A stretch of 46,411 nt of DNA. Origin: Candidatus Vogelbacteria bacterium (GTDB lineage: Bacteria; Patescibacteriota; Minisyncoccia; Phycocordibacterales; XYD1-FULL-46-19). How positions within the stretch are numbered: the stretch's first letter is position 1; each line of letters opens with the position of its first letter. Under the pieces are notes generated by a model. That model saw nothing but the letters and a program-made list of their open reading frames with translations, made no database searches and was not told where the DNA came from. The stretch spans positions 1 through 46,411 of the forward strand of contig JAHFNY010000002.1 in the NCBI GenBank assembly GCA_023267075.1, given 5' to 3'. This document shows, in pieces, positions 9,958 through 44,118 of the stretch. The translations under genes were made by a program, and so were the position numbers.

Positions 9958-11061
9958 AAAGTAATCTTCCAACTTCCTGATATACACCGGCAAGCTATAA
10001 TTACTCACCGTCACTTTGGCTTCTTGACTAATATTTTCCCTCAACGCTTCATCGTCCAAAAGAAGACTTATTTTATCCGCTAAAGAATCAGGGTCTTTGG
10101 GTTCAGCGAGTAGACCATTTTTACCGTCAATCAATATTTCCGGTATCCCACCCACCGCAGTGGCTACCACCGGCACACCAGCGGCCATCGCTTCAAGCAT
10201 CGCGATTGGTTGCCCCTCCCAGTGCGAGGAAATAACGAAAATATCTAAAACGGGCAAAATTTCTTTAATCTCCCGCGCGGGTCTAATCAAAAACCGTTCA
10301 CTTATTTTAAGATCATTAACTAAAGTCTTAAGTTCCGACTCTAGTTTACCGTAACCAATTAATAGAAAATAAACACCATCCCGCTTAATTTTTTCCAAAA
10401 CTTTTTTAGCCGCTTGAATAAGATCAACCTGGCCCTTCTGCTCAACGAAACGACCAACCGTTCCCACGACCACGCTATTTGCCGGTAGGCCTAAAGTTTG
10501 CTTCATTTTAACCGGATCAAATTGCTTTGGCTCAACTAATTCAATTGGATAAGGTAAAATGGCAAATTTACTTTTAGCAATATTTTCTTGTTTAGCGGTA
10601 AAATCTAAAATCGCTTGAGAATCAACGAAGATTTTAACCGTTTCAAGCGCTAAAATCTTATCGGCCGCAATCTTCCACCACGACTTCTGCCAATAAACAT
10701 TATGCTCAAAAATAAAGATGGGCTTCCGGCCAAGCAAGAGATTAAGCACCCGGATGATAAAATTTGACTCAAATAAATGGCAACAAAACAAATCAAACTT
10801 TTCTTGGCGCAAAAACTTATAAACCCTAAACCAACTTACAATATCCCCTGGCCCCCTAAAGTTAAAAGCCCGATACGGAATACCTTTAAGTTCGGCTAAA
10901 ACCTTAGCGTAATTATTTTCCCCATAAGGAAACAGGGTACAAAGATATGGTTCAAATCTCTCTTTATCAATGTTTTTAACCTGATTAATAACCAGCTTTT
11001 CCGCTCCACCAATATCCAAATTACCAATAGTGAACAAAATTTTAATCTTTTCGACAGTCAT
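9931..11061 (-). CDS. glycosyltransferase family 4
   Basis: Contains KILFTIGNLDIGGAEK and SSHWEGQPIAMLEAMAAGVPVVATAVGGIPE. Start taken at ATG 11061 (MTVEKIKILF). Confidence 0.85.
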   Translation of the reverse strand: MTVEKIKILFTIGNLDIGGAEKLVINQVKNIDKERFEPYLCTLFPYGENNYAKVLAELKGIPYRAFNFRGPGDIVSWFRVYKFLRQEKFDLFCCHLFESNFIIRVLNLLLGRKPIFIFEHNVYWQKSWWKIAADKILALETVKIFVDSQAILDFTAKQENIAKSKFAILPYPIELVEPKQFDPVKMKQTLGLPANSVVVGTVGRFVEQKGQVDLIQAAKKVLEKIKRDGVYFLLIGYGKLESELKTLVNDLKISERFLIRPAREIKEILPVLDIFVISSHWEGQPIAMLEAMAAGVPVVATAVGGIPEILIDGKNGLLAEPKDPDSLADKISLLLDDEALRENISQEAKVTVSNYSLPVYIRKLEDYFLDFFPANH

Positions 11062-12748
11062 AAATAGTACTTGAGATATATTTATCTTGTTCTCTATAGG
11101 CAACTTGGCAAGAATTAAAATACTGGGCATAGACACTGTTTGGATCAATATGTGGAATATCCACGACTAAATAATGCTCTCGATATTTATTAAGAGTTTT
11201 TAACTTTTCCGTGACATCAAATTTGGGGTCAATATAAAGACGCTTACGATATTTACCGGTTTGGATAACGTTATAGCCGCCATTATCGTTATAGACGGTG
11301 ACCATTTTAATATCCTGATCAGCCTTGATAAAAGCCGTGGCATTTACCACCAACTTAGCCGCATTACCATTAATACCGCCAAACAAATATTCTTCAATAA
11401 AAACTCCGTTATAGACTAAACCCAGAATAAGGATGCCCAACAAAACTGTCGTCTTAAGATTGACCTTAACAAAAGCAATTAAAACTAAAATTAAGACAAA
11501 CAACCACATTAAACCAATAAAAGCGAAAGAAATATAAAATGGTAGCGGGCCGGAACCACCAGTAAAGGGGAAGAGAAAATTCCAATGAAAAGAAACTAGG
11601 AGCTGAAGCCACTCAGTCTTAGGATAAAGGGGCGAGACATTCTGCGGTAAAAATTGAATCAAAAAAATCAAACTTGCGGCCAAGCTAATTATTAAAATTT
11701 TAAACCGATGGATCAATCCCTGATCTAGAACTTTAACCCCAATAGCGCCCCCAATCAGACATAAAGGAATGATTAAGAATTGGAGATAACGATCTAAAGC
11801 CCCAATAGAGAAATCGAATAGCACTAAATAGAAAACTAATCCGGCAAAAATAAATAAGTAAAACGGTCGAAGCTTTCTAAACAATACTTGATTGGTGAAA
11901 ATAACTGGTGCCAATAAAAGCGGGGAAGAATATAAAACCGCTTTACTAAATTGAATAAAAGTCTGGAGCCACCCCCGATTAAGAAATGACGATGAATCAG
12001 CAAAATGTTCCCAATACTTGATCGCGCTTGATACATTAAAGAAAGGAAAAAATAATTTAGATATTAGCAAAACATTAATTAAAACCGCTGCCGCTAAAAT
12101 AATTTTTAACCCATAAGCAAATAAGCGTTGCTTGTTACGGAAAGCTCCTTGCTCTACTGCCCAATCTAAAGCAAAAGCAAGCAGTGGCAAAACAGCACTA
12201 ACTTTGACCAGGAAACCACCTAAAGCCCCCACCAATAACAAGACCAACCACGGCCACTTTTCTTTAATCTCCAACTTCCCTGCCTTGCCGGCAGGCAAGC
12301 AATCTCTAACTTCTCTGATTTTGAAATAACCAATTGAAAGTAAGAGTAAAAAAAACGGCATTACTGCTCCATCAACATCCACCATCAAAGACGCCAAAAC
12401 CGAGAAAAAAGAAACGGTGAACAACAAAATAGTCCCATATGCAGTCCGGTAATCAAAAATAATTTTAGCTAAGTAAAAAAGTAGGAGTAAATTAAGTAAG
12501 CTAAAGATTAAGGGAATTGCCCGAAAATTGTTTTCTCCCACGACTGGGCCAAGTTTACTGTAAACAAATTCAGCCAGGGGCGGATGGGGAATGACGCCAA
12601 CCGACTCTTCTCCACTGCCAAAAAATGATACCCACTTGTATTCATCCTGGTGATATGGCTGATGAAGAGCCGGCAAACGCAAAACTAAAAATAGAACGAC
12701 AATAGCCAAGAAAATCAAAATCCCCTTCTTAGAAAACTTAAATTTCAT
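11042..12748 (-). CDS. GT-C fold membrane glycosyltransferase (GT39/PMT_2-like) with a C-terminal soluble domain
   Basis: Polytopic, with HQPYHQDEYKW (a first-loop acidic motif) near the N-terminus. Start taken at ATG 12748, because the track start 12781 is a TTG. It carries the in-frame palindromic element at 12278-12300. Confidence 0.55.
   Translation of the reverse strand: MKFKFSKKGILIFLAIVVLFLVLRLPALHQPYHQDEYKWVSFFGSGEESVGVIPHPPLAEFVYSKLGPVVGENNFRAIPLIFSLLNLLLLFYLAKIIFDYRTAYGTILLFTVSFFSVLASLMVDVDGAVMPFFLLLLSIGYFKIREVRDCLPAGKAGKLEIKEKWPWLVLLLVGALGGFLVKVSAVLPLLAFALDWAVEQGAFRNKQRLFAYGLKIILAAAVLINVLLISKLFFPFFNVSSAIKYWEHFADSSSFLNRGWLQTFIQFSKAVLYSSPLLLAPVIFTNQVLFRKLRPFYLFIFAGLVFYLVLFDFSIGALDRYLQFLIIPLCLIGGAIGVKVLDQGLIHRFKILIISLAASLIFLIQFLPQNVSPLYPKTEWLQLLVSFHWNFLFPFTGGSGPLPFYISFAFIGLMWLFVLILVLIAFVKVNLKTTVLLGILILGLVYNGVFIEEYLFGGINGNAAKLVVNATAFIKADQDIKMVTVYNDNGGYNVIQTGKYRKRLYIDPKFDVTEKLKTLNKYREHYLVVDIPHIDPNSVYAQYFNSCQVAYREQDKYISSTIYDCRKD
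12278..12300. repeat. GC-rich palindromic element, copy 1 (in frame in the GT-C gene)
   Basis: CCCTGCCTTGCCGGCAGGCAAGC. Its reverse complement matches copy 2 (24850-24872) at 21 of 23 positions. It encodes CLPAGKAGK. Confidence 0.7.
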
Positions 12749-12764
12749 AATGTGGGACAATTTT

Positions 12765-14426
12765 TTATTTCTTTTCGGCAATCAGTAATATCGACACACC
12801 AAAGGGGAACTTGAGATACCTTAACAATTTTCTTTCAAAATTAAAGAGGCTAAAAAATATTTTATCTAACAGGGGCGTATTAAGATCAAAATCGGACTGA
12901 CGCTTCTTAAGCTTAAAGATTCTACTCGCCAACCGGACCAGAGCAATCGGCAAGAAAAGAATGGTATTGAAATAAGATGAAGAAACAATTTTAAACTCGC
13001 CAGAAGTGAGGACCTTGTCCTTGATCCCACCTAAGGTGTAACGCCGATAATGATGGGCCACTTCATCTTGTACCCCCCAGAGAAATTGATACGCGGGCAC
13101 CATGACGATGAACTTGCCCCCTGGCTTAAGCACTCTTGCCACCTCTTTAATCGCCCAAGATTCATCCTCCAAGTGTTCTAAAACATCCATCGACAACACT
13201 ACATCAAATTGCCGATCGGGATAATTTAATTTATGGGAATCCTGAATGGTCAGATTTTTAATCCCCTTCAACTCGCCAAATTTAATCGCCTCTTCAGAGA
13301 TATCAGTTCCCGAGACATCATATCCCCGCTCGCCCAACTCCCCGACGAAAATCCCCGAACCACAACCAAAATCAAGAATCTTTACCTCCTTGGGCGAACG
13401 AGAAAAATACTTGGTCAAATTGTCTACCACCATCATCCGCCTAACCTTCATTAACCAATGATTCTTCTCTACTTCAAAATAATTTTTATAAAAATTTCTA
13501 TTCATGCCAGAAGTGTTTAGGTCCCATAAATTCCAATTGAACTTGGTAATATATTCTTTAAGGCAAACGTGCCAATCCCGAGTAAGGTGTGGAGCAATTC
13601 TCTTAAGCTCGGTGTTGATTAACTTCTCTGACTTGGGCCGCGGGGCAAAATAATTTTCTTTGAAAAAGCTAGAATCGACTTCTCGGATCTTAACTTGGTC
13701 TGTTACGCCAAGACATTCAAGCAAGTACCGCGCCACATCCGCTCGACTACCACCCCCATCGCAAGCCCCATGATATAGACCATAAGCATCATGGTCAAGA
13801 AGATATTTTATTGATTGAGCCAAGTCATAAGTGTGGCAAGGTGTCCCCAATTTATCATTGACTACCATCAACTCTTTCACCCCCGCCCGTAATTGTTTAA
13901 TGATTTTATTAATAAACTTTTTATCTTTCTTAGGCCCACCACCCATCATCCAACCAGCCCGAATAACAATCGACTTGGGTAAAGTCTTAGCCACCAACTC
14001 CCCGCCATATTTACTTTTACCATACACACTCAAAGGATTAGGAGTATCAATTTCTAAATACTCTTCTTTAACGCCATCAAAGATCCCCGCAGTAGAAATA
14101 TAGACTAGAGGAATATTATGTTCCCGGGCATATTGAGCCACATTTTCTACCCCACCGGTATTAGTGGCATAAGCCTCTTTAGGGTGGAGCTCGCAATATT
14201 CCATATCGGTTAAAGCTGCCAAATGGACAATGTAATTAGGCTTGATTTTAGCCAAGTAAGCGGCCACGTTTTTACTAGCCGCTACGTCTAAAAGCTCCAA
14301 CCAGGGAGTATTAAGATCAATATCGCTAGCATGAAGCTCGCAAATATCTTTAAAAACGTCATATACCGCCTCACCCAGCATGCCGCCGCAACCGGTTATG
14401 ACTACTCTGTCGCTTTTATGAATCAT
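12765..14426 (-). CDS. fusion protein: RmlD-like SDR (sugar-nucleotide reductase/epimerase) plus a C-terminal SAM methyltransferase
   Basis: The N-terminal part has VVITGCGGMLGEAV, HLAALTDMEYCE and SVYGKSKYGGE (the SDR YxxxK). The C-terminal part has ILDFGCGSGIFVGEL, VLSMDVLEHLED and LKPGGKFIVMVPA. Confidence 0.75.
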   Translation of the reverse strand: MIHKSDRVVITGCGGMLGEAVYDVFKDICELHASDIDLNTPWLELLDVAASKNVAAYLAKIKPNYIVHLAALTDMEYCELHPKEAYATNTGGVENVAQYAREHNIPLVYISTAGIFDGVKEEYLEIDTPNPLSVYGKSKYGGELVAKTLPKSIVIRAGWMMGGGPKKDKKFINKIIKQLRAGVKELMVVNDKLGTPCHTYDLAQSIKYLLDHDAYGLYHGACDGGGSRADVARYLLECLGVTDQVKIREVDSSFFKENYFAPRPKSEKLINTELKRIAPHLTRDWHVCLKEYITKFNWNLWDLNTSGMNRNFYKNYFEVEKNHWLMKVRRMMVVDNLTKYFSRSPKEVKILDFGCGSGIFVGELGERGYDVSGTDISEEAIKFGELKGIKNLTIQDSHKLNYPDRQFDVVLSMDVLEHLEDESWAIKEVARVLKPGGKFIVMVPAYQFLWGVQDEVAHHYRRYTLGGIKDKVLTSGEFKIVSSSYFNTILFLPIALVRLASRIFKLKKRQSDFDLNTPLLDKIFFSLFNFERKLLRYLKFPFGVSILLIAEKK

Positions 14427-19809: not shown

Positions 19810-21462
19810 TTATACCTCAAGCATCTTCTTTAGCACATCTTCAGGAACTTCTGGTTTAGCCCCGACGTCGCTTCGCGAGTCGGGACCCCGACCTTGCGTC
19901 GGGGCTTCATTAGATTTTGGTACTTCAGGCTTGGGTTCAATCGTCTTTACTACCGCCGCGAGGGCCGCTTTTAAATCATTCTTAAATTGATCAGTCCCCG
20001 TCTTTTTAGCTGGGGCCAAGTCTTTAAGCGAGACAGTTTTAGCCGGTGGCGGGACCGGTTTAGGAGCCGGGGTCGGAGCGGGCTTAGATACTACGGGCGA
20101 GGCAGCAATAGGCGGTTTAGGAGCCACCGAAGGCGCACTAGGAGCTTTAGGCGGGGTAGCAACGGCCACAACCTCAGGCTGATGCCAATCTACAATTGTT
20201 TGTTCTACTAGCGCTCGCGGCTTGGCATAGTGCTCATGGGTATAGGCAATCACTTTATCCCGCTGAGAGGGTGAGGTAGTTACAATCGGCGGCAAGGTCG
20301 TGGCCGAGAAGGGCGGCGAGCCAACGCCATCAATCATCAAGCTCAAATAAATTTGAGTGAAGCCCAGATTGACCAAATCCTCTTGAGTAAAGGTGGGGAA
20401 GAAGACTTTCTCCAGTACCTCGGCATCAAAGGGACCAACCCGGAATGAGATTAATGTCCCGACGTTGCCAAAGACGGCATTGCGCACCTCTTCTTCCATC
20501 TGTTCAATATATTGATGGGCAATAGTAAGTGAGAGTTTATATTTACGCGCTTCTGATAAAATATTCTCAAAGGTTTTATTGGCGAAAGATTGGAACTCGT
20601 CTACATAAAGATAGAATGGCGGCAATTGCCGGAGCTCGGCCTCCGGCACATTAGAGCGCGACATCGCCGCTAGATAAATCTTAGTAATGAGCATGCCACC
20701 CAAGAGATTGGCATTTTGCTCCCCCACTCGGCCTTTGGACAAGTTGATCAGCAAAATTTTCTTCTTATCCATCACCTCGCGGAAGTCAAAACTAGACTTA
20801 CTCTGGCCGATCATATTCCGGATCAAGGGGTTAGAAGTAAATTGCCCCACTTTATTTTGAATCGCCGGCGTGGCCTCAGCGGCGAAGCGCTCGGTATATT
20901 TAGCAAATTCATCCACCCAAAAGGACTTTACCGCTGGGTCAGAAATATTGGCTACCACCTTCTCTCTAAACTTTTTATCGGCGAGCATTCGGTTTACCCC
21001 CAAGAGGGTTGAACCGGGATATTCTAACAACGCTAAAATCGTATTATTTAAAATGTATGCCATCCGAGCGCTCCAAGCATCCACCCAAATCTTCTCAAAG
21101 GTGCTCATTAGGCCACTCGCGACCAAGTGGCGCTGATCCTTACCCACATCCTCCATCACATTAAAAGCAATCGGATGATCAAGGTCAAAAGGCGCCAGAT
21201 AAATCACATCACGAACTCGCTCGGGTGGAATGAAGTCCAAAAGCTTTTCCACCACACTGCCATGCGGATCAATAAAGCACATTCCCTCACCATTTTTAAT
21301 ATCCTGAATTGCCAAGTTCTCCAGCAAGGTAGACTTACCCATACCCGTCTTGCCGATAATATACATGTGGCGCGAGCGATCTTCAGACTTAATGCCAAAA
21401 GGCATCTTCTTGCCCCGGAAATCGGTTTGGCCAAAATAATTAAGGTGCGGAGTAAACTCCAT
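19810..21462 (-). CDS. TraG/TraD/VirD4-like type IV coupling-protein-family ATPase with a Pro/Ala-rich tail
   Basis: Walker A IGKTGMGKST and Walker B-like FYLYVDEFQSFA. The C-terminal ~130 aa are low complexity (ATPPKAPSAPSVAPKPPIAASPVVSKPAPTPAPKPVPPPAKT). Confidence 0.65.
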   Translation of the reverse strand: MEFTPHLNYFGQTDFRGKKMPFGIKSEDRSRHMYIIGKTGMGKSTLLENLAIQDIKNGEGMCFIDPHGSVVEKLLDFIPPERVRDVIYLAPFDLDHPIAFNVMEDVGKDQRHLVASGLMSTFEKIWVDAWSARMAYILNNTILALLEYPGSTLLGVNRMLADKKFREKVVANISDPAVKSFWVDEFAKYTERFAAEATPAIQNKVGQFTSNPLIRNMIGQSKSSFDFREVMDKKKILLINLSKGRVGEQNANLLGGMLITKIYLAAMSRSNVPEAELRQLPPFYLYVDEFQSFANKTFENILSEARKYKLSLTIAHQYIEQMEEEVRNAVFGNVGTLISFRVGPFDAEVLEKVFFPTFTQEDLVNLGFTQIYLSLMIDGVGSPPFSATTLPPIVTTSPSQRDKVIAYTHEHYAKPRALVEQTIVDWHQPEVVAVATPPKAPSAPSVAPKPPIAASPVVSKPAPTPAPKPVPPPAKTVSLKDLAPAKKTGTDQFKNDLKAALAAVVKTIEPKPEVPKSNEAPTQGRGPDSRSDVGAKPEVPEDVLKKMLEV

Positions 21463-24169: not shown

Positions 24170-24668
24170 ACTTAAGATAATTTCTTATTATACTGGACTC
24201 GTCTAAATCACTCCGCCCATACTTTTTTCCTTGTTCAACAAAAATATTTTCTAAAGTCTCTGGCGCAATCCACTTAATTTCACTCTTTGATTCTACTTCA
24301 TCTTTATCTCGACTTTCTGGATCAAGACTTGTCATCTTAACGTGAAAGTAGAGCGTCGTTTTTTCTACTTCCACCTTACTTACTCGCAAAGGAAAATGAG
24401 ATTTAATTGACCCAAGATATGCCTTCACTTCTCCCGCCGCACCAAATTCTTCTTTCAATCCTCGCAAAACTGTCGTTTCTAGTGCCTCTCCTGATTCTAT
24501 TGATTCTCTCATCAGCAACCAGAGATCGCTCTTTTTTTCTGTCTCAATTGGCAAATCATCTTTTTTATAAAAATGAACACAAATTAATCCCTCATCATTA
24601 GTAAGCACCGCTCCTACCGAAACATGGAACGGGAACTCCTTGGTAGCTTTAGTAATACTTACACTCAT
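24156..24668 (-). CDS. NUDIX hydrolase
   Basis: Has a Nudix-box-like segment ESIESGEALETTVLRGLKEEFGAAG. It overlaps the murD stop (ATGA) and the murC start. Confidence 0.7.
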   Translation of the reverse strand: MSVSITKATKEFPFHVSVGAVLTNDEGLICVHFYKKDDLPIETEKKSDLWLLMRESIESGEALETTVLRGLKEEFGAAGEVKAYLGSIKSHFPLRVSKVEVEKTTLYFHVKMTSLDPESRDKDEVESKSEIKWIAPETLENIFVEQGKKYGRSDLDESSIIRNYLKYVRN

Positions 24669-26005
24669 TTTAATTTCCTCACCAATTTATTAAACTGGTC
24701 ACCGCGGTCGAATTCATTCTGGAAAAGGCCAAAGGAAGCGGCGCCAGGGGAAAGTAGAATCAAGTCGCCGCGTTTGGCTAGGCCCTGAGCTTGCCGAAGG
24801 GCTAATTTCATATTATCCACCATAATCACCGGAAACTTTTTTTTCAACGGCTTGCCTGCCGGCGAGGCAGGTAGAGTAACAAGAATTTTTTTAGTCGCCG
24901 TACCCTCAAATAAAATCAAACCTTTGAGATATTTGGGCACAATTTGGCCATAGCGAGTATAATCTAATTCTTTATCTGTCCCGCCACCAATTAAAATAAT
25001 TTTACCCTTAAATTGCTTCAACGCATGAACTGCTGCCAGCACGGCGTCGGGTGTGGTGGCCGTGGTGTCATTGTAATATTTAATCCCCTTTACCTCTCTA
25101 ATAAATTCCAATCGCCCCGGTAAACCTTTAAAGTTTTTAACCGCCTTTTTAATTACCGAGTCAGACACTCCTAAAACTTTAGCCGCCGTACTGGCCAAGA
25201 CGGCATTATACTCTCGATGCTGACCGGCCAAGAGTGATTGCTTGGGGATTATTAACTTACCTTTTGGCTTCAAACTTTTTACTTTTTTAGCCACCTGACT
25301 ACCAGCAATTAATACATCTTCTTTAGTTTGATGAATAAAAATATTGGCTTTATCGGCAAAATATCTTTCCATATCTCCATGATAGTAATTTAAGTGATCC
25401 ACCATGAAAGTGGTGAAAACAGATAGATGCGGACTAATTTTATTATCGCCAAAGCTCTGCAATTGCCACGAGTCTAGCTCCATCACCACGTAATCACCTT
25501 TTTTAATTTTTTTTAATAACGGCAAAGTGGCTGTCCCTCGCACATTCCCGGCCAAGTACACTTTCTTTTTAGCTTGTTTTAAAATCTCAAACAATAAGTG
25601 CGTCACCGTACTTTTACCCCGGGTGCCAGTGATGCCAATAATTTTTACCCCCACTGGAGCGAGTCTACAGAAGAGCGAGGCATCTTGCTCGACTTCAATT
25701 TTATTCTTCTCCGCTTCTTTAAGATAAATAGAATCAAGCGGAACATTCGGCGCCCGAACAATTAAATCTTTATTTCTAAAATCTTCTAACCGATGCTCGC
25801 CCAAGTGGTAGGTAATAGCTTTTAGCTTCTTTAGCTGATTCAAAGCAGGAGCAAGCTCTTTTTCAGTCTTTAAATCCGTCACAGTTAAAATCGCTCCCTG
25901 TTCCGCCAAGAATTTGATTACCCCAATCCCCCGGCCGAGGAGCCCCAGGCCCATCACCGTCACCTTTTTGCCCTTAAAGTAGCCTTGCCAAGTCATCCCC
26001 GCCAT
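24665..26005 (-). CDS. murD: UDP-N-acetylmuramoylalanine--D-glutamate ligase
   Basis: Contains VMGLGLLGRG, IGITGTRGKSTV and LLSPGAASFGLFQNEFDRGDQF. Confidence 0.9.
   Translation of the reverse strand: MAGMTWQGYFKGKKVTVMGLGLLGRGIGVIKFLAEQGAILTVTDLKTEKELAPALNQLKKLKAITYHLGEHRLEDFRNKDLIVRAPNVPLDSIYLKEAEKNKIEVEQDASLFCRLAPVGVKIIGITGTRGKSTVTHLLFEILKQAKKKVYLAGNVRGTATLPLLKKIKKGDYVVMELDSWQLQSFGDNKISPHLSVFTTFMVDHLNYYHGDMERYFADKANIFIHQTKEDVLIAGSQVAKKVKSLKPKGKLIIPKQSLLAGQHREYNAVLASTAAKVLGVSDSVIKKAVKNFKGLPGRLEFIREVKGIKYYNDTTATTPDAVLAAVHALKQFKGKIILIGGGTDKELDYTRYGQIVPKYLKGLILFEGTATKKILVTLPASPAGKPLKKKFPVIMVDNMKLALRQAQGLAKRGDLILLSPGAASFGLFQNEFDRGDQFNKLVRKLK
24850..24872. repeat. GC-rich palindromic element, copy 2 (in frame in murD)
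   Basis: GCTTGCCTGCCGGCGAGGCAGGT, with stem CCTGCC/GGCAGG. It encodes LPASPAGKP. Confidence 0.7.
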
Positions 26006-33985: not shown

Positions 33986-34011
33986 AGTATCCTTTCTTTT
34001 GTTCCGTTTAT
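33986..34011 (-). repeat. 3' (trailer) half of the 16S precursor processing stem
   Basis: 33993-34011 is the exact reverse complement of 36484-36502 (19 bp). With two G-U pairs and five more Watson-Crick pairs, the helix extends to 26 bp. Confidence 0.75.
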
Positions 34012-34296: not shown

Positions 34297-35145
34297 ATTA
34301 TCTTTTAGAAACTTAAAATTGATGTTCCCACGTAGCAGGCGGATTTCCCGCACTACGCGAGCTCTAGTGCATTTTGGCCTTTAGCTTAGCTAAACGGACC
34401 AAACCAGCTTGGGTGTGATGAACACCCCGTTCAATCAATGTAAGCATTTGGCAAAACAATTCAAAATCACGCCTTTTTGAAGGTAATCGCAAGCGATTTT
34501 TCTTGAAAAAGGGAACGATTATTTTACCCAAATGATCACGATGAGTGACCTCAAAACGATAACAGTGTTGATGATTACGACGATTATCTTTCTGGAAATA
34601 GACATTACCACAACCAAAATATAATTTAAGTTGATCAAGAATAGTTTTATCCTTCTCAATCAACTTGAGATAAAAACGTGGTTCCGCTTTTACCCGACGT
34701 TTAACTTTAGGCGAAGTAGCCTCTCGGACATAAACCGTAAAGCTGCCTTCGCCATCTACTAAACCAACAATGTAATCTTTTGTAAGCATTTAGACACTAG
34801 AGTGAGCCCTTCTCCCTATATAATTTGGGATACTATGGCTCAGCTGACTTCTGACGCTGCGTAAGTTTCATTATACCTCGCCTAACGGCGGATAACAACG
34901 TCAGATCTCCACAGGTAAGTTATAGCACTCTTCCCTTCATCCTCAACGTGACTTGTCTTAGATCTTCACCACGCTCACCGCCCCTCCGTGGTTCAATCAT
35001 CACTTTTTATGTTAAGGCTAAAGTTTGCTTCCAGATCCTTCACCCTAGACCTCGCGGTGCTAGGGCTATCTTTCAGCTACGCTCTGGGACGACCAGAGGA
35101 GTCGATTTTAACGACTTAGTTCTATAACCAGCTGCGCGCTTTTAT
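34297..35145 (-). mobile_element. 16S rRNA intervening sequence encoding a homing endonuclease
   Basis: Conserved 16S sequence stops after ...GTACTCAC (E. coli ~1399) at 35146 and resumes with CGCCCGTCA (E. coli 1400-) at 34296. The 849 nt between contain the LAGLIDADG ORF on the same strand. Confidence 0.85.
34364..34789 (-). CDS. single-motif LAGLIDADG homing endonuclease
   Basis: 141 aa. It has the motif YIVGLVDGEGSF near the N-terminus, and its size fits homodimeric I-CreI-type enzymes. It lies inside the rRNA insertion. Confidence 0.85.
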   Translation of the reverse strand: MLTKDYIVGLVDGEGSFTVYVREATSPKVKRRVKAEPRFYLKLIEKDKTILDQLKLYFGCGNVYFQKDNRRNHQHCYRFEVTHRDHLGKIIVPFFKKNRLRLPSKRRDFELFCQMLTLIERGVHHTQAGLVRLAKLKAKMH

Positions 35146-36146
35146 TGTGAGTACAAGACTCGAGAACGTATTCACCGCAGTATAGCTGACCTGCGATTAC
35201 TAGCGATTCCAACTTCATGAGGTCGAGTTGCAGACCTCAATCCGAACTGGGGCCACCTTTAAGGATTAGCTCAGAGTTTCCTCGTCGCAACCTTTTGTAA
35301 TGGCCATTGTATCATGTGTGTAGCCCAGGATGTCAGAGGGACATGCTGACTTGGCGTCATCCTCGCTTCCTTTCGCCAGAGGCGAACAGTCTCGCGTGAC
35401 ACTTGTAACACGCGACGAGGGTTGCGTTCGTTTCCCCACTGAAGGGAACAACTCAAGCCACGAACTGACGACAGCCATGCATCACCTGCCCAACCGTCCT
35501 TGTGAGACATCTCAAGTTTCCTCGAGACTTCGTTTGGGTTTCAAACCCTGGTGAGGTTCTTCGTTTAGCGTCGAATTAAACCACATGATCCACCGCTTGT
35601 GCGAGTCCCCGTCTATTCTTTTGAGTTTTAGCCTTGCGGCCGTACTTCCCAGGCGGATCACTTAACGCGTTAGCTACGGCTCTCAGAGGGTCGATACTCC
35701 GAAAACCTAGTGATCATCGTTTAGGGCGTGGACTACTGGGGTATCTAATCCCATTCGCTACCCACGCTTTCGTGTTTCAGTGTCAGCTGAGTGCCAGCTA
35801 GCTGCCTTCGCTTTTGGTATTCCCCATGATATCAACGGATTTCACCCCTACACCATGAGTTCTACTAGCCCCTCACCCGCTCCAGTTTGGCCGTTTCCCT
35901 CGCCGCTTCCCGGTTAAGCCGGGAGATTTAACAAGAGACTAACCAGACCACCTACACACCCTTTACGCCCAATAATTCCGGATAACGCTTGGACCACTCG
36001 TCTTACCGCTGCTGCTGGCACGAGTTTAGCAGGTCCTTATTCATGAGGTACTATCAATAAAATTTCTCCCTCATAAAAGATGTTTACGCGCCGAAGCGCT
36101 TCATCCACCACGCGACATCGCTCCATCAGACTTTCGTCCATTGTGG

Positions 36147-36177
<31 letters not shown>

Positions 36178-36483
36178 ATGGGCCGTGTCTCAGTCCCATC
36201 GGTGGGGGTCAGGCTCTCACCTCCCCTACGCGTCATAGCCTTGGTAAGCCATTACCTTACCAACTAGCTGATACGTCGCAGGCCGCTCCCCAAGCGATAA
36301 ATCTTTACTCTTTCGAGACTATCGGGAATTATCTCGCCTTTCGGCGAGTTATGCCCGACTTGGGGGTGCGTTCCTACGTGTTACTACCTCGTTCGCCATG
36401 CCCCTTGCGGAGCATTCGACTTGCATGCCTTATCCATGTCGCCAGCGTTCATCCTGAGCCAAGATCAAACTCTTAGTTTAAAG

Positions 36484-36509
36484 ATAAACGGAACAAAAGA
36501 AAAAATACT
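36484..36509 (-). repeat. 5' (leader) half of the 16S precursor processing stem
   Basis: Complementary to 33986-34011 (see that feature). It ends only about 3-10 nt upstream of the mature 5' end. Confidence 0.75.
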
Positions 36510-40917: not shown

Positions 40918-41105
40918 CAATAAACAAAACTCCCCTGATTTGAAAAACCAGAGGAGAAATGAAGTAAGTTGCGAGAACGGAAAACAAACTGGTTGTCCGG
41001 ATTCCACCTGTTGTCAGGCTTCGCCCAATTGTCGTTCAGCCACAAATCGTCGTCGTTCCGGTCCAGGTTGAACACCTTCGGGTTACCGGCCGAGTCAGTT
41101 TCCGT
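40914..41105 (-). pseudogene. 3' fragment of a paralogue of the 617-aa gene
   Basis: Reads TETDSAGNPKVFNLDRNDDDLWLNDNWAKPDNRWNPDNQFVFRSR..., bounded upstream by an in-frame TAG (41106-41108). Nucleotides 40971-41099 align with 41480-41608, with 15 mismatches in 129 by hand alignment. Confidence 0.65.
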
Positions 41106-41250
41106 CTAAAACGCCACCTATATCACCACCCAGCGTGAAAGTTAAGAAAACCAATCTTCTGGGTTGAATTTTATCCGGCATCTTAAATGCCTTAGCGCTT
41201 TAGACCAAGTAGCTTCATTTTTTATGAAGTTTTACCCCGCCAGACTCTCT

Positions 41251-41324
41251 CCGGAAAGCCGTAGCCGTCCGGACTCTCGCCTTTGCGGATACTGGATTCG
41301 GGAGCCGGAAGCCGTAGCCGCCGG
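41251..41324. repeat. two tandem hairpins with the same 12-nt loop in an intergenic region
   Basis: CCGGA-AAGCCGTAGCCG-TCCGG (41251-41272) and CCGG-AAGCCGTAGCCG-CCGG (41305-41324). Confidence 0.6.
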
Positions 41325-41449
41325 TGACTATTCCCCTAGTACCGTGATTGATTATAGCAAAAATAAAATGGGATAAAAAATTTGGGCGGAGCAAGGACCA
41401 AGGGTCAAAGTTTCAAAGGGTAAAAAATTAAAATTCAAGAATCAAGGGT

Positions 41450-43303
41450 CTAAGGGCTTGCCTGCCCGCCGGCAGGCGGGCGAGAACGGAAAACAAACCG
41501 GTAGGCCGGATCCCACCTGTAGTCAGGCTCCGCCCAATCGTCGTCCAGCCACAAATCGCCGCCGTACCGGTCCAGGTCGAACACCCTCGGGCTACCGGCC
41601 GAGCCAGTGATTGGTTCCATGGCAATTACTTTCCAATCTTCTCCTTCATATTGCAAACGAAGCTGGGGACCAACTTCGGCTGGGCAGAGGTCCAGACCAA
41701 GTTCCTCCGCTCGTTGGTAAATATCTTGAGTTGTGGCGCCTTTAGGAAAGCCGAGTTGTTCAACTGTGAATTGCACCAGTTCATAAGTCTTCAATTCTTG
41801 ACTAAATTCAGTTTCGGTAAGAATATCATCGGCGTAATCAGAAATATTAATATTCTTAACTTTTAAGGCGGCACGGGCTTTATCTGGAGAATTAACGGCA
41901 GGATTAGTTTCTAAGGTTTGCCAAAAGATTTTTTTGTCCGGGAAAGATTCGTAGAAATGCTTGATATTAGGATAATTTCTGATAGTTTTAAAGACTTCCA
42001 GATTCCACGGGCCAATATAAACCTTGGTTTGGTTGTTAAGTTCATTAACGTTGTGCGCTACCTGGTCTTTGACACAGTCAAAAATCACCAACATGTCGGC
42101 TTCTAAATTTCTACCTTTTCGCAATTCATCAATTCTTGGATCACGGCCATAACCAAAACCTTTAATTTGGCCGTTAAGCTCATAGAGGAAGGTAAGTTCA
42201 ATTTTGGTTAAAGGCTCATCCTGATTCATCTTGGTCTCAATCTCAGTCAATTTCTTCATGTCCCAACTTTTCTTTCTATAGGTCTCAGCCTCTGGCCCAA
42301 ATTCTTTTAGCTTTTCATCCAAAACTTCTTGCATCAAGGGCTCAATGTTTTGGTGGGGTAGGATCCCGCGGACTTCGCCGATTCTCTGGTTTCCATCCAT
42401 TCGGATAGCCAGACGGGGTTGAGTGGGGTTACCGTCTCTATCATTGGTGTAATAAACGTAAAAGTCGCCAGACTCAATTTGCATTTCCGCCGTGGAACGT
42501 CCAGCCGTGCACCAGCCGGTACCCTTGCCTTCTAGCGATTGAAAAAGTTTGGCTGCGTCTCCAGCTTGTTTCTGCTCATATTTTATCCACTTACCCTTTA
42601 ACTCTTCCTTATTCTCAATCTGAGTGGCAAGTGACTTCTGGATCAGTTCAGCATAGAGGGTAGGAAATTTTTTAGAAAATTTTTCTTGAATCTCTGGGTC
42701 TTTAAGATTTTTATTATCGGCTTTGACTTTTTCGTAAATGTCAGCGATTTGGGCTAATGGCTCGCGGTAAATATCAGGGTACGGAGCAACTGTGCTTGTG
42801 GTCCGCTTTTTGAATTCGCCCCGTTCTTTATCAAATTGGGAGAGTTTAGTGATGCTTCGCCAAACAAAATACTTGAACCACGCTGGATACACAGCATCAT
42901 CGGAAGTTAGATAGTCCATCCATGCATCAAGGGAAACTTTCTGATCTTCAATCACGACAGTTTTCATCTGTTCACGGACATCACTGGGAATGTGTTCTAC
43001 TGCTTGGCCTCGTTCCCTGGCCACTCGTTGTTGGAGCTCAAAATAGCTCTCGGGAAAATTCTCTCGCTTAATAATCAGTGCGTCGTAGATTTTATCGCGG
43101 AATAATTCCAAATTCCGTCGCCTAGTTTTCTCATCCGGGTTGAGAAAAATGTTCTCCAGCCGATCCATATACGCCTCGATCCGCTCAGAGGGGTCATTGG
43201 GAATCTTTTCACCAGTTTGACGTTCTTGTCGAACTACCGCTCGCTCCACTTCCAGGGAAGTCTGGAGTTCGGGATTTTTGAGGTGGAGAGGATGTTTTTC
43301 CAT
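41450..43303 (-). CDS. large conserved hypothetical soluble protein
   Basis: 617-aa uninterrupted ORF with no TM segments. It contains a GKGTGWCTAGRS motif and a C-terminal VFDLDRYGGDLWLDDDWAEPDYRWDPAYRFVFRSR module. The last 9 codons and the stop are supplied by palindromic element copy 4. Confidence 0.7.
   Translation of the reverse strand: MEKHPLHLKNPELQTSLEVERAVVRQERQTGEKIPNDPSERIEAYMDRLENIFLNPDEKTRRRNLELFRDKIYDALIIKRENFPESYFELQQRVARERGQAVEHIPSDVREQMKTVVIEDQKVSLDAWMDYLTSDDAVYPAWFKYFVWRSITKLSQFDKERGEFKKRTTSTVAPYPDIYREPLAQIADIYEKVKADNKNLKDPEIQEKFSKKFPTLYAELIQKSLATQIENKEELKGKWIKYEQKQAGDAAKLFQSLEGKGTGWCTAGRSTAEMQIESGDFYVYYTNDRDGNPTQPRLAIRMDGNQRIGEVRGILPHQNIEPLMQEVLDEKLKEFGPEAETYRKKSWDMKKLTEIETKMNQDEPLTKIELTFLYELNGQIKGFGYGRDPRIDELRKGRNLEADMLVIFDCVKDQVAHNVNELNNQTKVYIGPWNLEVFKTIRNYPNIKHFYESFPDKKIFWQTLETNPAVNSPDKARAALKVKNINISDYADDILTETEFSQELKTYELVQFTVEQLGFPKGATTQDIYQRAEELGLDLCPAEVGPQLRLQYEGEDWKVIAMEPITGSAGSPRVFDLDRYGGDLWLDDDWAEPDYRWDPAYRFVFRSRPPAGGQASP
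41456..41480. repeat. GC-rich palindromic element, copy 4 (forms the 3' end of the 617-aa gene)
   Basis: GCTTGCCTGCCCGCCGGCAGGCGGG. It encodes PPAGGQASP followed by the stop codon. Confidence 0.65.
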
Positions 43304-43317
43304 AACACTATAATAGA

Positions 43318-44118
43318 CTAATCAGTCGCCAGCTCAAACAAGTTCTCAAACAGTTTGGCCACGGTGATGGGGCCAACGCCGCCGGGGACGGGGGTAAAGA
43401 TCGCACATTTGTCGGCACAAGCAGGGTCGGCGTCGCCGGCCAGTTTGCCACTCGCTCCTGCCTCGCCGGCAGGCAGGTCGCTCGTGGCGGCATCAATTAA
43501 AATCACTCCCTCTTTAATCATCGCCGGTTTAATAAAGTGCGGTCGGCCGGCGCCGCTCACCACAATATCGGCCACTTTTAGTAAATCAATTAAATTATCG
43601 GTTTGAGAGTCGGCCGTTTCCACCACCGCTCCTTGTTGAGCAAGCCACACCGCCACCGGCCGGCCCACCAACTTACCTTTGCCAATCACTAGCGCTTTTT
43701 TCTTGGCGACCTCAATTCCATTTTGACTTAAAATCTCGGCAATAGCGCCAGACACTGGATCCAAGACTTTTGGCTCTGGCCCCAGAGCATCAACGTCCTT
43801 CTCGGCTGGTACCAAAGCCAAAATCTTTTCTTGATCTAAATGTTTGGGCAATGGCAACTGAACTACAATGCCAGTAATATTCTGATCATCACCCAATTTC
43901 TGAACCACCGCCTCCACATCAGCTTGAGCAATGTTGGCCTCATACTCCAACACCCGCACCTCCACCCCAATCGCTTCGCCGAATTTTTTCTTAATATTAA
44001 CAAATGAGACCGAGGCCGGATCCTCCCCCACCAAGACCGCCGCCAGAATGGGCTTGGGTTCCTTCAATTTCAACTGCTCTTTAATTTCTGCCGCGAGGGC
44101 CTTACCATCCACAATCAT
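43318..44118 (-). CDS. folD: bifunctional methylenetetrahydrofolate dehydrogenase/cyclohydrolase
   Basis: Contains MIVDGKALAAEIKEQL, AAVLVGEDPASVSFV, GIVVQLPLPKHL and TPVPGGVGPITVAKL. Confidence 0.9.
   Translation of the reverse strand: MIVDGKALAAEIKEQLKLKEPKPILAAVLVGEDPASVSFVNIKKKFGEAIGVEVRVLEYEANIAQADVEAVVQKLGDDQNITGIVVQLPLPKHLDQEKILALVPAEKDVDALGPEPKVLDPVSGAIAEILSQNGIEVAKKKALVIGKGKLVGRPVAVWLAQQGAVVETADSQTDNLIDLLKVADIVVSGAGRPHFIKPAMIKEGVILIDAATSDLPAGEAGASGKLAGDADPACADKCAIFTPVPGGVGPITVAKLFENLFELATD
43457..43479. repeat. GC-rich palindromic element, copy 3 (in frame in folD)
   Basis: CCTGCCTCGCCGGCAGGCAGGTC. Its reverse complement matches copy 2 at 20 of 22 aligned positions. It encodes LPAGEAGAS. 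Confidence 0.7.

Follow-up and report, generated by a model that had tools for sequence, protein, structure and literature searches.

A 20-21-nucleotide palindromic element lying in frame within genes of a Candidatus Vogelbacteria contig and shared across bacterial phyla and phages

Introduction

Repetitive extragenic palindromic (REP) sequences form families that are mostly restricted to a species or genus, carry as their tag an unpaired GTAG or CGTC at one end, and have been reported inside known proteins in Opitutus terrae, Rickettsia conorii and Thioalkalivibrio (PMC3733652). The Rickettsia palindromic elements (RPEs) are the classic case of in-frame repeats (PMC3733652), and IS1397 is an insertion sequence (IS) element that targets the loops of REPs (cited in PMC3116915). 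Organelle genomes too have mobile GC clusters and palindromic repeats, in yeast mitochondria and in Volvox (for Volvox, PMC2670323). Here we describe a palindromic element of 20-21 nt, called E below, that occurs four times in a 46,411-nt stretch of DNA from a Candidatus Vogelbacteria bacterium (contig JAHFNY010000002.1, assembly GCA_023267075.1), and that recurs in identical form in at least nine phyla and in phages; the stretch, which is the entire contig, is referred to as the window.

Two further groups of repeats are relevant to the comparison, together with more detail on the RPEs. RPE-1 to RPE-8 are said to have been described by Ogata et al. in 2000, the RPE-1 type reportedly measuring ~100-150 bp and being confined to Rickettsia. 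The small dispersed repeats (SDR elements) of filamentous cyanobacteria, attributed to Elhai et al. in 2008, are reportedly 21-27 nt long with hairpin potential, nest within one another, differ in presence and absence at orthologous sites, and are mostly non-coding. DNA uptake sequences are lineage-specific and recur about once per kb.

Results

Four copies of E in the window

The window, whose genes include those for cell-envelope glycosyltransferases, Mur ligases, SecDF, FolD and 16S rRNA, contains the 18-mer GCCTGCCGGCRAGGCAGG in exact form at 12279-12296 (minus strand), 24854-24871 (plus strand) and 43457-43474 (minus strand), and this is its longest GC-rich repeat. The source names of its best protein matches place the contig with Paceibacteria-type (Parcubacteria) organisms. 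No match to the 18-mer was found in 100 dinucleotide shuffles of the window with up to three mismatches allowed; GC-rich 20-mers are common in the window, but a repeated 18-mer is expected zero times, and chance recurrence of GC-rich patches was rejected as an explanation. A first-pass annotation of the sequence had proposed a hairpin family at four sites in both orientations. Direct reading bears this out, with three exact 18-mers and a fourth copy that is real but diverged, and the identity given between copy 1, reverse-complemented, and copy 2 (21 of 23 positions) is correct. It had proposed a genome-wide check for enrichment; the repeat is far above chance in the window, relative to the shuffles, and in public genomes.

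An error-tolerant search defines a unit of 21 nt (E21), reading C, then C or T, then TGCCTGCCGGC, a purine (R) and AGGCAGG. Related to it is E20, a perfect 20-nt palindrome without the central R, in which two inverted 10-nt arms, CCTGCCTGCC and GGCAGGCAGG, abut directly and constitute terminal inverted repeats; E21 is E20 with a single purine inserted after GGC. The unit is therefore 20-21 nt, shorter than the ~23 nt first suggested, and GCTTG, initially described as a conserved flank, is not one, since CTTG is the C-to-T variant of E's own first four bases, CCTG. As single-stranded DNA, E is predicted to form a 6-8-bp hairpin with a folding energy of -6.8 to -8 kcal/mol, and E21, which is seven codons long, can be read through in all six frames without meeting a stop. 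The copies and their host open reading frames (ORFs) are as follows.

12279..12299, minus strand: copy 1, E21, CTTGCCTGCCGGCAAGGCAGG, exact 18-mer core and 21-nt match; encodes LPAGKAG
24851..24871, plus strand: copy 2, E21, CTTGCCTGCCGGCGAGGCAGG, antisense to its host murD; encodes PASPAGK in the Mur_ligase_C domain
43457..43477, minus strand: copy 3, E21, CCTGCCTGCCGGCGAGGCAGG, equal to the consensus; encodes (D)LPAGEAG in FolD
41461..41480, minus strand: copy 4, diverged 20-nt member, CCCGCCTGCCGGCGGGCAGG, one substitution and one deletion relative to the consensus
11042..12781, minus strand: host ORF of copy 1, GT-C type glycosyltransferase (PMT_2), 579 codons when read from its most upstream possible start
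24665..26005, minus strand: host ORF of copy 2, MurD, UDP-N-acetylmuramoylalanine-D-glutamate ligase
43318..44118, minus strand: host ORF of copy 3, FolD, methylene-THF (tetrahydrofolate) dehydrogenase/cyclohydrolase
41450..43303, minus strand: host ORF of copy 4, 617-aa protein without a Pfam match, between folD and secD

All four window copies are intragenic, as first described, at a density of one per 11.6 kb, and the peptides quoted for them (CLPAGKAGK, LPASPAGKP, LPAGEAGAS and PPAGGQASP) were correctly read. The accompanying claim that every copy preserves the frame holds for copies 1-3, which lie within long ORFs, and fails for copy 4, which is located at the extreme 3' end of the 617-codon ORF, where the tail PPAGGQASP is followed by a stop codon; a length of 20 nt means that this copy shifts the frame of the final four codons. 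No Rfam family was found at the E copies or across the 40.9-41.5 kb region. Three of the four window copies start with CTTG, as against 3/122 genome-survey copies among the matches listed, and this prevalence of an otherwise rare start suggests copying within this genome.

Copies 1-3 compared with their homologues

Relative to their nearest homologues, FolD, MurD and the GT-C glycosyltransferase each have exactly seven additional codons derived from E. The FolD loop comprises 16 residues (IDAGTSE-SSGxLxGDA) in 111 of the 120 nearest relatives and 23 residues (…TSDLPAGEAGASG…) in the window, where E interrupts the Glu codon of the TSE motif after its first two bases, GA: the window reads AGC GA[C CTG CCT GCC GGC GAG GCA GG]A GCG (E in brackets), and empty relatives read AGT GA/G TCG or AGT GA/A TCT (slash at the junction), a difference of exactly +21 nt with no duplication. 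In murD the window has CTA[CCT GCC TCG CCG GCA GGC AAG]CCG TTG, with E antisense, compared to TTA/CCG TTA in homologue P0125, which again is exactly +21 nt; the insertion point, between Leu and Pro codons, is clean relative to both P0122 and P0125, and the insert is missing from all 14 of the closest MurD homologues (…VLPA-KWKK…, 73-80% identity). LPAGKAG is present in none of 119 aligned GT-C homologues, its site being a loop between transmembrane segments, and because these homologues are collinear through the site we could rule out that copy 1 is an intergenic terminator between two mis-joined genes. In an AlphaFold model of the window FolD (mean predicted local distance difference test score, pLDDT, of 91.8) the sole stretch scoring below 50 is residues 216-223 (PAGEAGAS), and the insert is predicted to be disordered and located at the tip of a β-hairpin.

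These comparisons address whether the Pro/Ala/Gly segments are simply ordinary conserved or convergent protein sequence, with the DNA similarity as a by-product. A loop of equal length does exist at this position in some distant FolD proteins (4a26, 8wfc), but one DNA sequence yields different peptides in different genes (LPAGKAG, PASPAGK, LPAGEAG), the segment is missing from close homologues, and E is found also in tRNA genes and intergenic DNA. The FolD and MurD homologue and codon-level comparisons refute this explanation, to which we give next to no credence. Orthologues without the palindrome are without the peptide (14/14 for MurD, 119/119 for GT-C, and 111/120 with the short loop for FolD), the check that the first-pass annotation had put forward, and copies 1-3 are accordingly DNA insertions rather than conserved protein sequence.

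The MurD loop holds other inserts as well. In P0156 (L203), from another Paceibacteria lineage, it contains a different GC-rich palindrome of ~40 nt, TCTAGGTCCGTCCTAGGCCGGTCTAGGACGGACCTAGG, read as WSRSVLGRSRTDL, and several further MurD homologues have unrelated inserts in that same loop. With such palindromic mini-inserts in the MurD loop of Paceibacteria, E appears to be one example, the most widely distributed, of a larger class of such elements.

A duplication borders copy 4. A 129-nt segment at 40971..41099 (minus strand) is a duplicate, 88% identical, of the last 43 codons of the 617-aa ORF (41480-41608); it is located ~380 nt downstream of the 3' end of that ORF, in direct orientation. 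It does not include the palindrome, the homology stopping precisely at the border of copy 4. The intervening 350 nt (41100-41449) gave no convincing ORF or Rfam match, the best being a weak one to RT-7 (E-value 0.03). In a related Paceibacteria contig (L140, 1640-3759) folD and secD are directly adjacent, and the ~2.4-kb segment with the 617-aa ORF (41450-43303) therefore looks like a lineage-specific insertion.

Gain, loss, nesting and decay

Close relatives differ in whether they carry E. Between P0005 and P0013, folD is 95% identical at the DNA level, P0005 having a perfect E20 and P0013 being empty, and P0005 has a compensating 1-nt insertion a few bases downstream of its E20. In folD of P0006 a second copy is nested in the centre of the first, CCTGCCTGCCGG[C CTG TCT GCC GAC AAG GCA GG]C GAG GCA GG (second copy in brackets); its relative P0024 is empty at this site, and P0009 and P0012 have a decayed E at the same FolD position. 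The window and P0002 folD genes are 70% identical and their E copies match at 20/21 positions, a disparity that implies that the copies are younger than the genes or have been kept homogeneous. Three tandem in-frame copies are present near the N-terminal domain of an arginyl-tRNA synthetase (ArgRS) on a Chitinophagaceae contig (DASPKM010000006.1; L045, ~1245-1307), encoding LPTGKAG LPTGKAG LPAGEAG, and head-to-head pairs of E are present in phage contigs. E is added to pre-existing DNA as an exact block of 20 or 21 nt, in either orientation, and without target-site duplication where the empty site is known.

A second small palindrome adjoins E at one locus. In the histidine kinase ATPase domain of L096 (~1040-1095) it stands directly before E (ATCCCGCC AAA GGCGGGAT), so that two distinct mini-palindromes share one loop.

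Distribution among bacteria and phages

A GTDB scan of one genome per species with the query CYTGCCTGCCGGCRAGGCAGG identified E21 at 120 or more loci, where between 0.002 matches (if all DNA were 30% GC) and 22 (if all were 70% GC) would be expected; most of the matched loci, among the matches listed, have a GC content of 30-46%. Taxon counts refer to the 80 titled matches among those listed (total at least 120).

Bacteroidota: 29 of 80, including cultured Arenibacter sp. P308M17 and Hyunsoonleella flava T58
Patescibacteria/Candidate Phyla Radiation (CPR): 25 of 80
Gammaproteobacteria, metagenome-assembled genomes: 10 of 80
Omnitrophota: 5 of 80
Planctomycetota: 2 of 80
Ignavibacteria: 2 of 80
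Elusimicrobia: 1 of 80
Nitrospirae: 1 of 80
Spirochaetia: 1 of 80
Unclassified: 4 of 80

The Bacteroidota matches include Chitinophagaceae contigs of 0.96 and 2.1 Mb, and there are no cyanobacterial records in the 80 titled hits among the matches listed. The first-pass annotation had placed E in the context of CPR genomes, but it is not specific to them, being found also in Bacteroidota, Gammaproteobacteria, Omnitrophota and others, with the identical sequence in at least nine phyla plus phages and, among the survey matches listed, with flanks that are unrelated between loci. The G-CTTG subtype of the window was found at 60 metagenome loci. IMG/VR yielded 10 loci with E21 and 35 with E20, mostly in GC-rich phages, and one viral contig (L224, IMGVR_UViG_3300037242_000417) has six E20 copies in 29.5 kb; further diverged copies occur within the fetched loci at about one per 40-60 kb. 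Phages were considered as the main vehicle of E, a role that is at most a possibility given so few viral loci.

Hosts of E in other phyla include ArgRS, AlaRS, MenE, a histidine kinase, YebC and a TonB-dependent receptor. When Ignavibacteriaceae MenE is aligned with the B. subtilis MenE structure, a 7-residue gap falls exactly opposite LPAGKAG. In a phage tRNA-Met(CAT) gene (L228, 2239-2330) E20 lies between the GAGG and TC of the variable loop, without preventing ARAGORN from recognising the tRNA. That many phyla, and phages, have identical copies suggests that E spreads horizontally and turns over rapidly.

A sequencing or assembly artefact, such as an adaptor or linker remnant or an effect of assembly graphs built with k=21, would be in keeping with a 21-nt repeat, 21 being a common smallest assembler k-mer, and with the predominance of metagenome-assembled genomes among the matches. 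It is nonetheless hardly credible, given that the copies come from many pipelines and from cultured Arenibacter sp. P308M17 and Hyunsoonleella flava T58, that frames are maintained, with a compensating 1-nt change after an E20, that decayed and nested copies and a skewed use of frames are seen, and that host genes are collinear with their homologues on both sides of each copy.

Two viral contigs show E among other structured repeats. The GC-rich contig L224 has at least 10 copies in 12 kb of a 45-nt hairpin repeat (GGGTGCCCCATCCTTG…CAAGGGTGGGTC), whose loop is plain or contains either E20 or TCCGCCGCGGCGGA. In L235 (~500-560) E20 lies in the D-loop of a truncated tRNA-like fragment.

Tolerance of E in coding DNA

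We pooled 180 unique copies, within which the genome survey contributes a subset of 122. Long open frames contain 88/180 (49%) of all copies and 43% of the subset, as compared with 70% of random positions in the same loci, showing that E is depleted in coding DNA yet far from excluded. Use of the six frames among the 88 is strongly skewed (34/26/9/8/7/4, chi-square p = 8e-10) towards LPAGKAG (34) and PALPAGR (26), the two frames poorest in Cys/Arg, with 28 copies in the other four combined, and the copies are sense to the gene in 45 cases and antisense in 43. Skewed frames with equal strands are the pattern expected of insertion at the DNA level followed by selection on the translated peptide, and the pattern is not that of an RNA or protein motif. 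Because E21 amounts to seven stop-free codons in all six frames, it fits any gene phase and is translated as a Pro/Ala/Gly-rich disordered loop. Copies persist where they are tolerated, in protein surface loops, the variable loop of a tRNA, the loops of other hairpins, and intergenic DNA.

These patterns also bear on the idea that E is a functional signal under selection (a protein-binding site, a DNA-uptake or recombination signal, as had also been suggested at first pass, an RNA hairpin acting in transcript stability or termination, or a replication or partition signal) with its genic location incidental. Such a signal would account for the perfect conservation over very distant hosts and for the 20/21 identity of E in folD genes only 70% identical, where E has changed far less than the synonymous positions of the gene around it, and it might explain the T-runs after some intergenic copies and the clustering of several phage-contig copies at gene boundaries. 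It would not lead one to expect equal orientations relative to genes, unrelated host genes and flanks, near-identical genes with and without E, or decayed copies; and the depletion in ORFs with a skew of frames is as expected of a tolerated burden. Uptake sequences in particular, being lineage-specific and about as frequent as one per kb, do not match an element present in both orientations and with unrelated flanks in at least nine phyla at a low density of ~1 per 12-60 kb. E is also unlike an intrinsic terminator: the window copies are internal to genes and have no T-run after them, sense and antisense copies are balanced (45/43), and as there is no consistent T-tract the copies are not intrinsic terminators. 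A selected signal is in our judgement improbable.

Junctions, flanks and 7-nt repeats

At the three junctions with a known empty site (FolD, MurD and tRNA) there is no target duplication. Position -1 of E21 is a purine in 93% of copies and the 3' side shows a weak bias (G 40%, then A 51%), and this combination of a rule on one side with a weak bias on the other points to a strand-polar process; the central extra base is A in 87 copies and G in 39, under a search pattern that admitted A/G only. Nesting in other palindromes is seen for 5-6% of copies versus 1% of controls, and we rejected as a general rule that E lies inside larger palindromes. One copy occupies the loop of a member of the 45-nt phage hairpin family, other members of which have a plain loop or a different GC palindrome.

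A minority of copies is associated with 7-nt repeats. Identical 7-nt words, amounting to 7 or 14 nt, abut 25/177 E21 and 7/45 E20 copies, with one further case of an 8-nt repeat in each set and none of 5, 6 or 9-13 nt (~0.4 expected). E21 is free of any abutting repeat in 83% of cases, and there is no fixed-length target-site duplication at every copy, as repeats of 7, 8 or 14 nt accompany 14-16%. When E is removed, the flanks of seven copies make a continuous period-7 array, compared with 0/3,540 controls. The words follow local base composition, AT-rich in CPR and GC-rich in GC-rich phages, which indicates that they derive from the target. Copy 1 is one of the flanked copies, its words being read directly from the window.

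12300..12313, minus strand: two 7-nt words, GAAGTTA GAGATTG, immediately 5' of copy 1
12265..12278, minus strand: two 7-nt words, GAAGTTG GAGATTA, immediately 3' of copy 1

These flanks form a 14-nt direct repeat identical at 12/14 positions, and the same layout, with two words on either side of E, is seen at L024, L029, L031, L032 and L063. Heptamer arrays also occur in this loop in GT-C homologues without E: P0246 (L202) has a perfect (AATTTTC)x4, whose translation runs through the three phases in turn to give NFQFSIFNFQ, and its close relative P0255 (L201) has a different 33-nt GC-rich insert exactly between heptamer units 2 and 3. A 7-bp target duplication as a general rule is contradicted by the FolD, MurD and tRNA junctions, and two flank-pattern scans found no empty alleles of the repeat-flanked phage copies. 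The repeats may reflect either a second mode of insertion that makes 7-bp duplications, with repeated visits building arrays, or a preference of E for pre-existing 7-nt tandem junctions.

How E may move

We consider it probable, judging from sequence, that E is a very small, non-autonomous, selfish palindromic DNA element, similar to REPs and RPEs and moved in trans. In such a scheme E would fold as a hairpin on single-stranded DNA and be moved by an enzyme encoded elsewhere, most plausibly through a hairpin-recognising single-strand mechanism of the HUH/RAYT (REP-associated tyrosine transposase) or IS200/IS605 kind, because this would fit the hairpin, the lack of target duplication and the strand polarity of the flank rule. 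The CTTG variant shared by three window copies further suggests that resident copies may be copied within this genome. E does not appear to represent the joined ends of a full-length IS, as a search of 1.49 Mb of fetched DNA revealed no transposase gene between paired half-sites; a 1.4-kb inverted pair in L224, considered as a candidate IS, consists of copies of the 45-nt hairpin family with E20 in the loop, with no transposase-like ORF between them.

Several observations weigh against a selfish element moved in this way. Pfam annotation of the ORFs identified no transposase, HUH or RAYT gene in the window, the matches being to glycosyltransferases, Mur ligases, SecDF, a LAGLIDADG endonuclease and a VirD4-like protein, and an all-against-all comparison of 2,870 ORFs around 130 copies (~1.3 Mb of loci) revealed no recurrent neighbour gene family. 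No sequence is conserved outside the E hairpin, unlike REPs and the ends of IS200/IS605 elements, which need a guide or cleavage motif. The ~15% of copies with 7- or 14-nt direct repeats resemble 7-bp target duplications of the DDE type and conflict with the clean junctions. A single FolD bond (GA^R) is filled in several lineages that are not mutual closest relatives; with its carriers scattered among relatives, the bond has been filled or vacated several times, and such repeated occupancy needs strong target choice or spread via recombination. The densities given derive from the window and the fetched loci, and the evidence for insertion is the comparison of filled with empty sites.

Some of these points would be accommodated if no dedicated enzyme existed and E arose or was captured time and again through the host's own DNA repair or replication, either by ligation of a short oligonucleotide or duplex into breaks or gaps, or by template switching onto other copies, with the central extra purine and the -1 purine as untemplated additions. 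For example, the 13-mer CCTGCCTGCCGGC has a self-complementary 3' end, and fill-in of its dimer would give exactly E20. Neither a linked enzyme nor a conserved flank was found, the junctions are clean and free of duplications, E is associated with slippage-prone 7-nt tandem repeats, and the purines at the centre (always so in the survey, which is partly built into a pattern allowing only A/G) and at -1 (93%) are in keeping with this mechanism. There is, however, no known source of the oligonucleotide and no conserved 'master' locus among the 180 copies, an identical 21-mer over many phyla is hard to reach through independent repair, and the CTTG subtype in three of the four window copies points to the copying of resident copies. 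We regard capture by repair or replication as unlikely, although less so than a selected signal, and continue to favour a selfish element moved in trans.

A broader version of that proposal can be offered tentatively. E may be a pan-bacterial, phage-borne, ultra-minimal mobile element consisting of a bare 20-bp palindrome (21 bp in the frame-neutral form), still active in at least nine phyla and moved by a so far unrecognised, broadly distributed activity that targets single-stranded or slipped DNA; repeated visits would leave tandem repeats quantised at 7 nt, and E would be a source of 7-residue loops and heptamer-repeat segments in the housekeeping proteins and tRNAs of small-genome bacteria such as CPR.

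Other features of the window

The 16S rRNA gene (35095-36480, minus strand) and ~1.1 kb downstream of it are enclosed by a 26-nt inverted repeat (33986-34011 and 36484-36509, 92% complementary), and the downstream stretch has a group II intron D1-D4 fragment (34806-34880) and an ORF for a LAGLIDADG endonuclease (34364-34789). The repeat is probably a processing stem around the intron-bearing rRNA region. No match to 23S rRNA was found in the window. An ORF for a VirD4/TrwB-like type IV coupling protein (19810-21462) is situated in the middle of the cell-wall gene cluster, and its position is conserved in L140 and L203.

Discussion

Should E prove to be a mobile element, it would set a new lower size limit for one that spreads horizontally, at 20 bp with no flanking signal, and its length of exactly seven codons without a stop would let it persist within essential genes. 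It would also provide a testable source of lineage-specific loop insertions in FolD, MurD, ArgRS, AlaRS, MenE and tRNAs, and would call for caution when CPR and Bacteroidota proteins are annotated, placed in phylogenies or modelled structurally, as these 7-residue inserts would be DNA parasites and not functional motifs. Identical copies in distant phyla and phages could be used to trace how bacteria of groundwater and aquatic habitats have recently exchanged DNA. Phyletic co-occurrence would offer a handle on the mobilising enzyme, and the cultured hosts Arenibacter and Hyunsoonleella would permit experiments.

Among described systems, E resembles REPs and REPINs in that both are GC-rich imperfect palindromes of 20-40 bp with many dispersed copies, sometimes in inverted pairs, and both are thought to be non-autonomous mobile elements. 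E fails the REP tag test, however: GTAG/CTAC lies within 8 nt of an E end in 7/180 copies and CGTC/GACG in 13/180, compared with ~14 expected by chance, and the only flank rule of E is the purine at -1. REPs are mainly extragenic, downstream of ORFs, whereas about half of E copies are in ORFs and their density is low; REPs are mobilised by RAYTs encoded in the genome and flanked by the repeats, and for E the stretches covered had no RAYT or transposase in the window and no recurrent neighbour gene in the ~1.3 Mb of loci; and unlike REP families E is a single identical sequence in at least nine phyla plus phages.

The resemblance to RPEs noted at first pass holds as an analogy, both being in-frame, loop-forming and apparently selfish. 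RPEs, like E, are selfish palindromic repeats in frame in functional genes, translated without disturbing the fold, and E is likewise absent from orthologues. E differs in being 20-21 nt long, in adding exactly seven residues, and in its cross-phylum distribution. In size and behaviour the nearest relatives would be the SDR elements as they are reportedly described, and for neither is a mobilising enzyme known; nesting (P0006) and presence and absence at orthologous sites (P0005/P0013 and P0006/P0024) are SDR-like behaviours seen also in E. By the same description SDRs are set apart as cyanobacterial, whereas E crosses phyla and is often in frame in housekeeping genes.

With the 'peel and paste' elements of the IS200/IS605 family E has in common hairpin ends, junctions free of target-site duplication, and a strand-polar mode of insertion beside a short target, and as with IS elements that target REP loops, E is found in the loops of other hairpins. 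It differs in that it encodes nothing and has no sub-terminal guide or cleavage motifs, its target being merely a purine, and the IS200/IS605 mechanism does not produce the 7-nt direct repeats that flank 15% of E copies. Elements 70-300 bp long that descend from a full-length IS and keep its ends are too large to match a unit of 20-21 nt. The GC clusters of organelles are likewise short GC-rich palindromes that spread in AT-rich genomes, inside genes as well, but are lineage-restricted and of different sequences, whereas E is present in free-living and episymbiotic bacteria and in phages.

A literature search by the sequence, its halves, the encoded peptides and keywords found no description of E. 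As a family E is new, and what makes it unusual is how small it is, that it is frame-neutral, and that its sequence is identical over phyla and phages; it appears to rank among the smallest and most widespread selfish DNA elements so far.

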